A stretch of DNA of 221 bases from a phage: sequence record M10695.1; one strand, 5' to 3'. A program made the position numbers and the translations under genes. Position 1 is the stretch's first letter, and each line of letters begins with the position of its first letter. The notes beneath the pieces are model-generated. The model made no database searches. It was not told the origin of the DNA and worked only from the letters and a program-made list of their open reading frames with translations. Below are positions 1 to 221 of the stretch, piece after piece.

Positions 1-7
1 GGGGAAC

Positions 8-20
8 CCCCCTTCGGGGG
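8..20 (+). other. 5'-proximal stem-loop: C8-C12 pairs with G16-G20 around loop TTC, or equivalently C9-C12/G17-G20 closing a C(UUCG)G tetraloop
   Basis: Direct complementarity CCCCC/GGGGG. Positions 12-17 read CTTCGG, the classic UUCG tetraloop context. An alternative pairing G1-G4 with C9-C12 is possible, so the 5' GGGG may be paired or free. Confidence 0.7.
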
Positions 21-25
21 TCACC

Positions 26-45
26 TCGCGCAGCGGGCTGCGCGA
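26..45 (+). other. Stem-loop: 8 bp stem (26-33 TCGCGCAG with 38-45 CTGCGCGA), loop CGGG (34-37)
   Basis: Perfect inverted repeat read from the sequence; 27-34 CGCGCAGC is the exact reverse complement of 37-44 GCTGCGCG. Confidence 0.75.
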
Positions 46-49
46 AGGG

Positions 50-72
50 GCCACGCTGCGAAGCAGCGTGGC
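50..72 (+). other. Stem-loop: 10 bp stem (50-59 GCCACGCTGC with 63-72 GCAGCGTGGC), triloop GAA (60-62)
   Basis: Perfect inverted repeat; the longest and most GC-rich stem in the window. Confidence 0.8.
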
Positions 73-77
73 GGTTC

Positions 78-100
78 TCGTGCGTTACCGAAACGCACGA
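78..100 (+). other. Stem-loop: 9 bp stem (78-86 TCGTGCGTT with 92-100 AACGCACGA), loop ACCGA (87-91)
   Basis: Perfect inverted repeat read from the sequence. Confidence 0.8.
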
Positions 101-106
101 AGGTCG

Positions 107-123
107 CGCCTCTTCACGAGGCG
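107..123 (+). other. Stem-loop: 6 bp stem (107-112 CGCCTC with 118-123 GAGGCG), loop TTCAC (113-117); possible extra G106-U124 wobble pair
   Basis: Perfect inverted repeat read from the sequence. Confidence 0.7.
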
Positions 124-134
124 TCACCTGGGAG

Positions 135-148
135 AGCGCGAAAGCGCT
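135..148 (+). other. Stem-loop: 5 bp stem (135-139 AGCGC with 144-148 GCGCT) closed by a GAAA (GNRA-type) tetraloop at 140-143
   Basis: Perfect inverted repeat with a GAAA loop. GGG 130-132 could also pair with CCC 151-153 across a small internal loop, but that competes with the next hairpin. Confidence 0.7.
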
Positions 149-151
149 AGC

Positions 152-167
152 CCGTGACTCGTCACGG
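152..167 (+). other. Stem-loop: 6 bp stem (152-157 CCGTGA with 162-167 TCACGG), loop CTCG (158-161)
   Basis: Perfect inverted repeat; 152-158 CCGTGAC is the exact reverse complement of 161-167 GTCACGG. Confidence 0.7.
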
Positions 168-179
168 TCGAACTCCCGT

Positions 180-199
180 ACGAGGTGCCCGCACCTCGT
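180..199 (+). other. Stem-loop: 8 bp stem (180-187 ACGAGGTG with 192-199 CACCTCGT), loop CCCG (188-191)
   Basis: Perfect inverted repeat read from the sequence. Confidence 0.75.
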
Positions 200-215
200 C
201 CCCCCTTCCGGGGGG
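200..215 (+). other. 3'-proximal stem-loop: 6 bp stem (C200-C205 with G210-G215), loop TTCC (206-209)
   Basis: Direct complementarity CCCCCC/GGGGGG. It is followed by an unpaired 3' tail, TCCCCA. Confidence 0.7.
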
Positions 216-221
216 TCCCCA
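216..221 (+). promoter_or_regulatory. Single-stranded 3'-terminal TCCCCA tail: candidate replicase initiation site (C-cluster) plus a terminal A
   Basis: The tail lies outside every local hairpin found. Qbeta replicase templates are known to end in a 3' C-cluster with an extra non-templated A, and to start with 5' G residues; this window does both. Confidence 0.55.

Follow-up and report, generated by a model that had tools for sequence, protein, structure and literature searches.

Perfect hairpins on both strands of MDV-1 RNA, and a predicted competition between its terminal hairpins and 5'/3' end pairing

Introduction

The chain of hairpins in MDV-1 RNA, and the role of that chain, have been studied since the 1970s and feed into design rules such as 'fewer unpaired G/C in loops'. 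The RNA itself (midivariant-1) is said to have been described by Mills, Kramer and Spiegelman in 1973 as a template of Qβ replicase. A CCC(A) 3' end is required by this enzyme (PMC4652763; PMC4200798), and further template features are cited in PMC4652763, which attributes a stable 5'-terminal stem with an unpaired 3' terminus on both strands to Biebricher and Luce (1993), an internal C/U-rich domain to Brown and Gold (1995), and a 5'-3' long-range interaction needed for efficient replication to Ugarov and Chetverin (2008). Other small replicons, including RQ135, MNV-11 and the nanovariants, have GG.../...CCA ends, internal structure on both strands and a 5' stem in common with MDV-1, as well as co-operation of their termini and an exponential amplification that is limited by +/- duplex formation (PMC4652763; PMC6847885), but they are unrelated to it in sequence. 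By analogy, MDV-1 also appears to resemble the copy-back defective-interfering RNAs of negative-strand viruses, which likewise carry an inverted terminal repeat, and this repeat provides both strands with one and the same 3' initiation end and lets the two ends of a strand pair. These RNAs differ from MDV-1 in virus class and polymerase, and the terminal repeat units of MDV-1 are also hairpins themselves.

Protein components act on the separation of template and product as well. The C-terminal wedge of the replicase β-subunit splits the nascent duplex together with EF-Tu (PMC4200798, which also describes a template exit tunnel), and S1 is the release factor for the single-stranded product (PMC5762825). 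Chetverin's group still regards the maintenance of single-strandedness as an 'unsolved mystery' (PMC5762825), which implies that RNA structure alone is not accepted as sufficient. With regard to the RNA, the summary of Axelrod (1991) in PMC4652763 states that stem-forming inserts in MDV-1 lower the dsRNA fraction and that G/C-rich loops raise it.

Results and discussion

The window examined in the present study is the whole 221-nt stretch of record M10695.1, with GGGG...CCCA ends. Judged by its sequence it is MDV-1 (midivariant) RNA in the minus sense, 38 of the 221 nt having been matched to published sequence; we take the remainder to agree with the published minus strand. The matched part comprises 38 contiguous nucleotides (140-177) identical to the primers of pUC-MDV-LR, a vector use of MDV-1 (PMC4652763). 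Nothing substantive appears to distinguish the window from published MDV-1, which likewise forms many hairpins on both strands. Counted on the complement of the window, the insertion junction lies at 62|63, as compared with '63-64' in the 222-nt numbering of PMC4652763, an offset pointing to a difference of 1 nt, either in a homopolymer run or at an end. The only two open reading frames are GTG-initiated, encode 25 and 29 aa and are without support; a coding capacity was therefore rejected and the RNA treated as non-coding. A tRNA/tmRNA scan of the window found none, and no Rfam family reached its gathering threshold (evalue mode), the best matches covering only the terminal GC hairpins. The top match, PhotoRC-I, scored 18.6 bits against a threshold of 45 and covered only the 5' hairpin, and the others scored below 18 bits.

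A preliminary description, made from the sequence, had listed nine consecutive perfect hairpins with 5-10 bp stems covering about three quarters of the molecule. All nine are perfect Watson-Crick inverted repeats at the coordinates given there, with stems, counted from the ends inward, of 5, 9, 10, 9, 6, 5, 7, 9 and 6 bp for hairpins 1 to 9, and their intervals cover 162 of 221 nt (73%). Under a uniform hairpin definition the window contains 9 hairpins covering 165 nt, whereas 5000 dinucleotide-preserving shuffles averaged 1.6 hairpins and 24 nt (maxima 7 hairpins and 107 nt), and the z-score for folding of the whole molecule is -8.4 on each strand. Three of the repeats (26-45, 152-167 and 180-199) cannot form stems of the length described, since these would leave sterically impossible 2-nt loops; the stems are really 8, 6 and 8 bp with the 4-nt loops CGGG, CUCG and CCCG, respectively. 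The loops of all hairpins are 3-5 nt long with at most 4 G/C. In the predicted ensembles of either strand, the seven internal hairpins are the prevailing structures, with pair probabilities of 0.89-1.0. The depiction of hairpins separated by short linkers also needs qualification, in that the minimum-free-energy (MFE) structure adds the helices 101-104/126-129, 130-134/171-175 and 24-26/46-48 and is not simply beads on a string (Table 1).

The description had further pointed to two thermostable tetraloops. Of these, C(GAAA)G at 139-144 is borne out: it caps its own stem as a GNRA tetraloop on 5 bp with a pair probability of 0.99. The string CUUCGG is present at 12-17 but is not the loop of the 8-20 stem, because a 5-bp stem at those positions implies a UUC triloop. 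The favoured register of hairpin 1 is instead 6-21, in which 6 bp close a CUUC loop (-11.1 kcal/mol, versus -8.8 for 8-20 and -7.2 for the 4-bp cUUCGg register). As the loop is CUUA or UUUA in the homologous 5' hairpins of Qβ, UUCG is not the conserved feature; nor is GAAA conserved, being AAUAU in the Qβ homologue and UUUC on the complement. The tetraloop argument is thus weak, with the UUCG register unfavoured and both tetraloops absent from the complementary strand and from the Qβ homologues.

Table 1 Features of the MDV-1 window, with coordinates from its first letter
Feature	Position	Strand	Description
5'-terminal GGGGA leader (G cluster)	1..5	+	Homologous to Qβ(+) nt 1-5; unpaired or weakly paired in local fold; pairs with 216-220 in MFE panhandle
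Qβ(+) nt 1-34 homologous segment	1..34	+	88% identity
Hairpin 1	6..21	+	6 bp, A6-U21 to C11-G16; loop CUUC; homologue of Qβ 5'-terminal hairpin; 8-20 is a poorer register; absent from full-length MFE
Hairpin 2	26..45	+	8 feasible bp; loop CGGG; mean pair probability 0.94; 5' arm homologous to Qβ 26-34, 3' arm without Qβ counterpart
Hairpin 3	50..72	+	10 bp; loop GAA; pair probability 0.998 on both strands
Hairpin 4	78..100	+	9 bp; loop ACCGA; pair probability 0.98
Qβ(+) ~4091-4146 homologous segment	95..148	+	End of replicase ORF and start of 3'UTR
Hairpin 5, extended	101..129	+	Core 107-123, 6 bp, loop UUCAC, pair probability 1.00; outside core G106·U124, C105·C125 mismatch and helix 101-104/126-129; homologue of Qβ hairpin ~4097-4125, which spans the replicase stop codon
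Enclosing helix 130-134/171-175 (GGGAG/CUCCC)	130..175	+	Three-way junction with hairpins 6 and 7 inside; in MFE and centroid of both strands; retained in span<=50 fold
Hairpin 6	135..148	+	5 bp; GNRA loop GAAA, C-G closing; pair probability 0.99; same position as Qβ 3'UTR hairpin GGCGCC-AAUAU-GGCGCC
Hairpin 7	152..167	+	6 feasible bp; loop CUCG; pair probability 0.89; loop (159|160) is the foreign-sequence insertion site in MDV-1 recombinants, where the PMC4652763 primers abut
Hairpin 8	180..199	+	8 feasible bp; loop CCCG; pair probability 0.98
Hairpin 9	200..215	+	6 bp; loop UUCC; pair probability 0.19; near copy of hairpin 1 (7-20 vs 200-213, 93% identical); displaced in full-length MFE through pairing with 5' end
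3' tail UCCCCA	216..221	+	Carries CCC(A) initiation end; single-stranded in local fold; pairs with G1-A5 in MFE

The two strands fold as near mirror images of each other. The MFE structures of the + and - strands overlap with a Jaccard index of 0.81 (0.18 ± 0.15 in shuffles), and the + strand structure contains a single G·U pair, as compared with 7.0 ± 2.2 in shuffles. Folded separately, the strands have energies of -142.1 and -143.9 kcal/mol (sum -286), and the full +/- duplex has an energy of -551.3 kcal/mol. Since the duplex is by far the more stable, any separation of the strands can only be kinetic. The proposal that mirror-image hairpins on both strands prevent a template-product duplex is supported by these computations together with published experiments, and the anti-duplex mechanism is in agreement with published work (Axelrod 1991; Usui 2015).

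The explanation that we consider highly probable is that MDV-1 carries hairpins selected on both strands, which trap template and product kinetically in single-stranded form. Both complementary strands would have to serve as templates, and this would select for inverted repeats made of Watson-Crick pairs only, because a G·U pair in one strand is a C·A mismatch in the other; we infer that the perfect repeats arose through such selection. As the replicase copies its template, the β-subunit wedge and EF-Tu would open a nascent duplex of ~9-14 bp, and the emerging stretches of template and product would each snap shut as short, stable hairpins whose loops are small and poor in G/C. Few unpaired nucleotides would then be left to nucleate annealing of template and product, so that the strands would be kinetically trapped as single strands even though their duplex is far more stable. 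RNA structure is part of the mechanism and not the whole of it, as the wedge with EF-Tu and S1 also act. The hairpins, their mirror symmetry, their excess over shuffles, the energetics and the Qβ homology were computed in the present study; the wedge, S1 and the effects of stems and loops are taken from the literature.

Two segments of the window are homologous to the Qβ genome. Positions 1-34 match Qβ 1-34 (E = 9e-7, ~88% identical) and positions 95-142 match Qβ 4091-4138 (E = 1.7e-8; 81% identity to strain TW18 and 42/48 to AY099114), both in single-genome searches, and the homology was also recovered in a search of a phage collection. The replicase stop codon, TAA in Qβ, reads TCA in the window. 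MDV-1 would on this basis be a 221-nt non-coding parasite of Qβ replicase assembled partly from Qβ genomic pieces, with >95% of the genome and all coding capacity lost. Hairpins 1, 5 and 6 lie in the same positions as hairpins of Qβ, whereas 3, 4, 7 and 8 are without a Qβ counterpart; the loops differ between MDV-1 and Qβ (CUUC versus CUUA, and GAAA versus AAUAU), and the 3' end is like that of Qβ(-) and unlike that of Qβ(+). Among Qβ isolates the homologues of hairpins 5 and 6 show compensatory changes. In a sample of six phage sequences, 98.8% of cells in the hairpin 5 homologue are paired and two pairs have compensatory double changes. A distant-mode search for further Qβ-like phages returned only Qβ isolates, with at least 91% identity.

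Some hairpins would have further roles. Hairpin 1 would supply the 5' stem that characterises Qβ templates; the region of hairpins 5 and 6 descends from a structure conserved in Qβ and probably takes part in binding of the replicase. Both strands of the window have a 5' G cluster and a 3' CCC(A): the window reads GGGG...UCCCCA and its complement GGGG...UUCCCC, disregarding the partner of the added 3' A. At the level of strings, C/U-rich domains are found at 109-115 (CCUCUUC) and 199-209 (UCCCCCCUUCC), and on the complement opposite 130-136 (CUCUCCC). Conceivably, the hairpins serve Qβ replicase chiefly as recognition elements (5' stem, internal domain and free 3' CCCA) and are not anti-duplex devices, their mirror symmetry following merely from the need of both strands to be recognised; we regard this as possible, though less than an even prospect. 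It is consistent with the derivation of hairpin 1 and the hairpin 5/6 region from Qβ, the compensatory changes that have kept the homologues of the latter, the pyrimidine tracts on both strands, and the template requirements for a 5' stem, a 3' CCC and an internal C/U-rich domain (PMC4652763). However, Qβ homology extends to only three of the nine hairpins, arbitrary inserts in the loop of hairpin 7 still replicate, and the dsRNA fraction tracks the structure of an insert and not its identity (PMC4652763). Recognition complements kinetic trapping by hairpins and does not exclude it.

A source was sought for two parts of the window without Qβ homology (35-94 and 149-199). None of 5,426 complete E. 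coli genomes contained a match, plasmids yielded only chance-level matches, and the phage collection yielded only Qβ and chance matches. Scans for exact words of the non-Qβ parts in IMG/VR, JGI metagenomes and GTDB genomes were empty except for one 23-mer. This exact 23-mer of hairpin 3, on a metagenome contig (L007), was rejected as a chance match on account of its differing flanks. On the contig it resembles an unrelated terminator-type hairpin followed by UUUU.

Such palindromes might also be relics of copy-back or template-switching synthesis, which would have duplicated segments in inverted form without selection on folding. We judge this improbable as an account of the hairpins, although hairpin 2 has a 5' arm derived from Qβ and an exactly complementary 3' arm for which Qβ has no counterpart, the termini form an inverted repeat as in copy-back defective RNAs, and the searches of E. 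coli, plasmids, phages, GTDB genomes and metagenomes gave no source for 35-94 and 149-199. Origin and maintenance are separate questions, and MDV-1 comes from conditions that selected strongly for rate of replication. Moreover, hairpins 5 and 6 are inherited structures and not new palindromes, copy-back alone does not predict uniformly small, G/C-poor loops, and manipulating the stems alters the dsRNA yield according to work cited in PMC4652763.

The ends of the molecule depart from the picture of selected local hairpins. Folding of both strands, which the preliminary description had proposed as a check, bears out the seven internal stems, but long-range pairing, which the description had named as refuting evidence, replaces both terminal hairpins. 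The repeats at 8-20 and 200-215 are missing from the MFE structures of both strands; the window strand gives them pair probabilities of 0.005 and 0.19, and its complement 0.04 and 0.00. They are replaced by 1-12/210-220 and 16-20/201-205, because the ends form an inverted terminal repeat. This preference was found in 24 of 24 combinations of four parameter sets, three dangle models and two strands. The end helix comprises 16-17 bp on both strands under all parameter sets, and the best local fold lies 3.6-17 kcal/mol (ΔΔG) above the structure that contains it. Competition of the terminal hairpins with 5'/3' end pairing on both strands is a clear, model-independent prediction. When the pairing span is limited to 50 nt, the best fold has 5' hairpins at 6-21 and, on the complement, 7-22, with the 3' tail free; in the global MFE of both strands the ends pair mutually, and there is no 5' stem with a free 3' tail.

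The functional fold could be a closed panhandle that confers 'functional circularity', the terminal hairpins being co-synthetic intermediates or an inactive alternative. Published drawings of MDV-1 depict terminal hairpins, and we hold the panhandle to be unlikely as the functional fold. It would accord with the consistency of the end helix across models, with a low estimated barrier from the local fold (~7.3-7.5 kcal/mol) and with the 5'-3' interaction that PMC4652763 cites from Ugarov and Chetverin (2008). At equilibrium, however, the 3' CCCC would be fully paired (P(unpaired) ~0 for 216-220), whereas the 3' end has to reach the active site for initiation (PMC4200798), and the emphasis of Biebricher and Luce (1993), as cited in PMC4652763, is on a 5'-terminal stem. 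When 5' prefixes of increasing length are folded by MFE, the ends do not pair until the prefix has reached 218-219 nt or more, and the energies of the 7-way junction multiloop are poorly parameterised. The prefixes of the + strand also show transient alternatives for hairpins 1, 4 and 7.

A more speculative reading, to which we assign a low probability, is that the two end elements constitute a bistable switch derived from a copy-back-like inverted terminal repeat. Each end would form its own hairpin during synthesis, giving an active template with a free 3' CCCA, and the ends of the released full-length RNA could re-pair into a panhandle of ~17 bp. Such a panhandle would serve either to switch off free RNA or to bring about the co-operation between 5' and 3' ends that legitimate templates show. 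A loop-loop contact of hairpins 2 and 8 (CGGG/CCCG) might aid the switch; as a kissing interaction it was rejected as not significant, with contacts of equal length in 15% of loop-letter shuffles. Within a limited literature search we found no published statement of a bistable end switch for MDV-1.

Conclusions

The hairpin chain of MDV-1 and its anti-duplex role are already known and long established, and their confirmation here adds nothing new. MDV-1 is the historical model of a single-stranded RNA that is copied repeatedly without ending as an inert duplex. Avoiding that duplex is a central problem both for scenarios of replication in an RNA world and for the engineering of RNA replicons. 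The competition predicted between its terminal hairpins and end pairing is the one point that specialists might still find useful.

The hairpin array and its registers

The window comprises 221 nt with a G+C content of 70%, beginning 5' GGGG and ending 3' CCCA. It had been described as carrying nine consecutive perfect local hairpins over about three quarters of its length, and perfect Watson-Crick inverted repeats are indeed present at all nine intervals, covering 162 nt in total (73%; Table). Hairpins were also scanned de novo, defined as at least 5 perfect bp around a central gap of 2-6 nt, non-overlapping, with 5000 dinucleotide-preserving shuffles as control. By this definition the window has nine hairpins covering 165 nt, compared with shuffle means of 1.6 hairpins and 24 nt and maxima of seven hairpins and 107 nt; since it exceeds every shuffle maximum, the array is real and far above chance.

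The observation required only minor corrections of coordinates and register. The repeats are perfect, but at hairpins 2, 7 and 8 the stems had been drawn too long, leaving 2-nt loops. The reading of C(GAAA)G at 139-144 is correct. The string CUUCGG does occur at 12-17, but a C(UUCG)G tetraloop there clashes with the 8-20 register, whose 5-bp stem would close on a triloop, UUC. The best register of hairpin 1 is 6-21 (6 bp, CUUC loop, -11.1 kcal/mol), against -8.8 kcal/mol for 8-20 and -7.2 kcal/mol for a 4-bp cUUCGg hairpin, and its Qβ homologue also adopts 6-21, its loop being CUUA or UUUA. Three short perfect palindromes do not belong to the hairpin scheme: AGCGCT (143-148) and GCTAGC (146-151), which overlap the 3' side of hairpin 6 and the linker behind it, and CGTACG (177-182).

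Table. Coordinates and dimensions of hairpins and predicted helices in the window
Feature	Coordinates	Perfect bp, ends inward	Remarks
Hairpin 1	8-20	5	terminal
Hairpin 2	26-45	9	physical stem 8 bp, loop CGGG (34-37)
Hairpin 3	50-72	10	
Hairpin 4	78-100	9	
Hairpin 5	107-123	6	
Hairpin 6	135-148	5	
Hairpin 7	152-167	7	physical stem 6 bp, loop CUCG
Hairpin 8	180-199	9	physical stem 8 bp, loop CCCG (188-191)
Hairpin 9	200-215	6	terminal
MFE helix	24-26/46-48		absent from the preliminary description
MFE helix	101-104/126-129		prolongs hairpin 5 beyond one G·U pair and one C·C mismatch; absent from the preliminary description
MFE helix	130-134/171-175		three-way junction around hairpins 6 and 7; absent from the preliminary description
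MFE end pairing	1-12/210-220 and 16-20/201-205		in place of hairpins 1 and 9

Identity of the molecule

The molecule is most probably MDV-1(-) RNA, an assignment based on a primer match over 140-177 and, for the remainder of the window, on apparent agreement with the MDV-1 sequence. PMC4652763 gives two primers, CGTCACGGTCGAACTCCC and AGTCACGGGCTAGCGCTTTC, for opening the plasmid pUC-MDV-LR at the site where MDV-1 receives inserts; these match window 160-177 (+ strand) and 140-159 (complement), respectively, and abut at 159|160. The window is the minus sense because genes inserted in this plasmid are in sense with the second primer (same paper). The junction corresponds to 62|63 of the 221-nt complement, while the paper's text places it at '63-64' in 222-nt numbering; given this 1-nt offset the window is probably a length variant, in a C/G homopolymer run or at an end. 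Rfam contained no family for the window, a search for tRNA-like elements found none in it, and its only two ORFs (25 and 29 aa) are unsupported.

Segments shared with Qβ RNA

Window 1-34 is homologous to Qβ(+) 1-34 (88% identity) and window 95-142 to Qβ(+) 4091-4138 (81% to strain TW18, 42/48 to AY099114). Given a loop indel, the second similarity continues to ~148 (FJ483840 4091-4146, alignment A1 of the window with Qβ); this internal block, 95-148, corresponds by homology to the last part of the replicase gene plus the first part of the 3'UTR. At the 3' end, window 202-220 is similar to Qβ 2-20 in reverse complement, a stretch that forms the 3' terminus of Qβ(-) RNA. The two MDV-1 strands are thus alike in having a 5' hairpin of Qβ(+) type and a 3' terminus of Qβ(-) type, which accounts for the inverted repeat of the termini (2-12 versus 210-220, 91% complementary). 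Because each terminal unit is itself palindromic, the two are also near-identical direct copies (7-20 versus 200-213, 93%). Copy-back defective RNAs have an architecture similar to this inverted terminal repeat (1-21 and 200-221).

The homologue of hairpin 5 straddles the stop codon of the Qβ replicase gene; the window (124-126) reads TCA where the phage has TAA. At 105/125 every Qβ isolate has a T-A pair and the window a C·C mismatch. Across six Qβ isolates and the window, 98.8% of alignment cells in this helix are paired, with compensatory double changes at two pairs (C-G to U-A in BZ1, G-C to A-U in TW18). At the position of hairpin 6, Qβ has the hairpin GGCGCC-AAUAU-GGCGCC, with a compensatory C-G to U-A change in BR12 and U·G in VK. 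Hairpins 1, 5 and 6, at least, are inherited, selected structures. In hairpin 2 the 5' arm, UCGCGCAGC, equals Qβ UCACACAGC apart from two A-to-G changes (26-45 versus Qβ 26-48, alignment A2), and its perfectly complementary 3' arm had no Qβ counterpart in that alignment; together these suggest that hairpin 2 arose or was perfected once MDV-1 had diverged from the phage RNA, with copy-back synthesis as a possible route.

No source of 35-94 and 149-199 was found in E. coli genomes, plasmids, phages, IMG/VR, JGI metagenomes or GTDB genomes. An exact 23-nt copy of hairpin 3 (GCCACGCTGCGAAGCAGCGTGGC) at 1394-1416 of the unrelated metagenome contig Ga0187784_10064742 is intergenic and flanked AAAG...CTTTTCC, like an intrinsic terminator; its flanks are unlike the window and it is most likely a coincidence. 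Two imperfect direct repeats could be traces of internal duplication: 17-35 versus 120-138, which share the motif GGNGUCACCU (once behind hairpin 1, once within the 3' arm of hairpin 5) also carried at both corresponding places in Qβ, and 150-163 versus 187-200 (GCCCGYGACYUCGUC-like, 79% identity). The loops of hairpins 2 and 8 are perfectly complementary (6 nt with closing pairs) and could form a kissing contact on both strands; an equally long loop-loop match arises in 15% of loop-letter shuffles.

Folding of the two strands and their separation

RNAfold minimum free energies (MFE) were -142.1 kcal/mol (window strand) and -143.9 kcal/mol (complement), each with z ~ -8.4 against shuffles. On both strands the MFE and centroid structures contain all seven internal hairpins (2-8), whose mean pair probabilities are 0.89-1.00. 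Local stems thus dominate, as expected from the preliminary description, for seven of nine hairpins, but the two terminal ones are displaced by long-range pairing; the seven are predicted to be robust on both strands and the terminal two to compete with end pairing.

The proposal that both strands fold into mirror-image hairpins instead of a long duplex is supported by the predicted folds: the Jaccard index of mirrored base pairs is 0.81, against 0.18 ± 0.15 in shuffles. The MFE structure contains one G·U pair, compared with 7.0 ± 2.2 in shuffles; such scarcity is expected under selection for folding of both strands, since a G·U pair reads as C·A on the opposite strand. The fully paired +/- duplex (-551.3 kcal/mol) lies far below the sum of the separately folded strands (-286.0), so that release as single strands must be kinetic. 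Published insert effects agree: in PMC4652763, stem-forming inserts lowered and large or G/C-rich loops raised the dsRNA fraction of MDV-1 derivatives, and its authors' proposal is that strands begin to anneal where a template loop meets its complementary counterpart on the nascent strand. This rule still applied when an MDV-1-based replicon evolved in vitro (PMC6913131), and the loops of all nine hairpins are 3-5 nt long with at most four G/C. According to PMC4200798, the nascent duplex is split after ~9-14 nt by EF-Tu and the C-terminal wedge of the β-subunit, which also guide the template into an exit tunnel of its own; S1 promotes single-stranded product release (PMC5762825). In the best-supported picture, strand separation would be the enzyme's task, and the separated strands would be held apart by the dense array of local, Watson-Crick-only hairpins. 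The mechanism put forward initially is the accepted, established view of MDV-1 and was already known.

Terminal hairpins versus end pairing

In the MFE structures the terminal hairpins give way to a panhandle joining the 5' and 3' ends. For the local terminal stems, pair probabilities were 0.005 and 0.19 (window strand) or 0.04 and 0.00 (complement). The best local fold (pair span ≤50) has all nine hairpins and a free 3' tail, and is less stable than the MFE structure by 11.6 and 12.2 kcal/mol on the respective strands. End pairing was preferred in all 24 combinations of four parameter sets (Turner 2004, Turner 1999, Andronescu 2007, Langdon 2018), three dangle models and both strands, with ΔΔG of 3.6 to 17 kcal/mol, and a direct-path estimate of the barrier from local fold to panhandle is only ~7.3-7.5 kcal/mol. 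In MFE folds of growing 5' prefixes, the terminal hairpins yield to end pairing only at ≥218-219 nt, and on the window strand hairpins 1, 4 and 7 transiently give way to alternatives. This behaviour fits the account in PMC8632103 of work by Kramer & Mills (1981), in which metastable structures rearrange while Qβ replicase is synthesising the RNA.

The choice between terminal stem and 5'-3' end pairing is the sole aspect of residual interest. Template requirements quoted in PMC4652763 include a 5'-terminal stem and also a long-range 5'-3' interaction; the MDV-1 termini can form either, never both together, and the end helix, favoured by every energy model tested, would bury the 3' CCCC needed for initiation.
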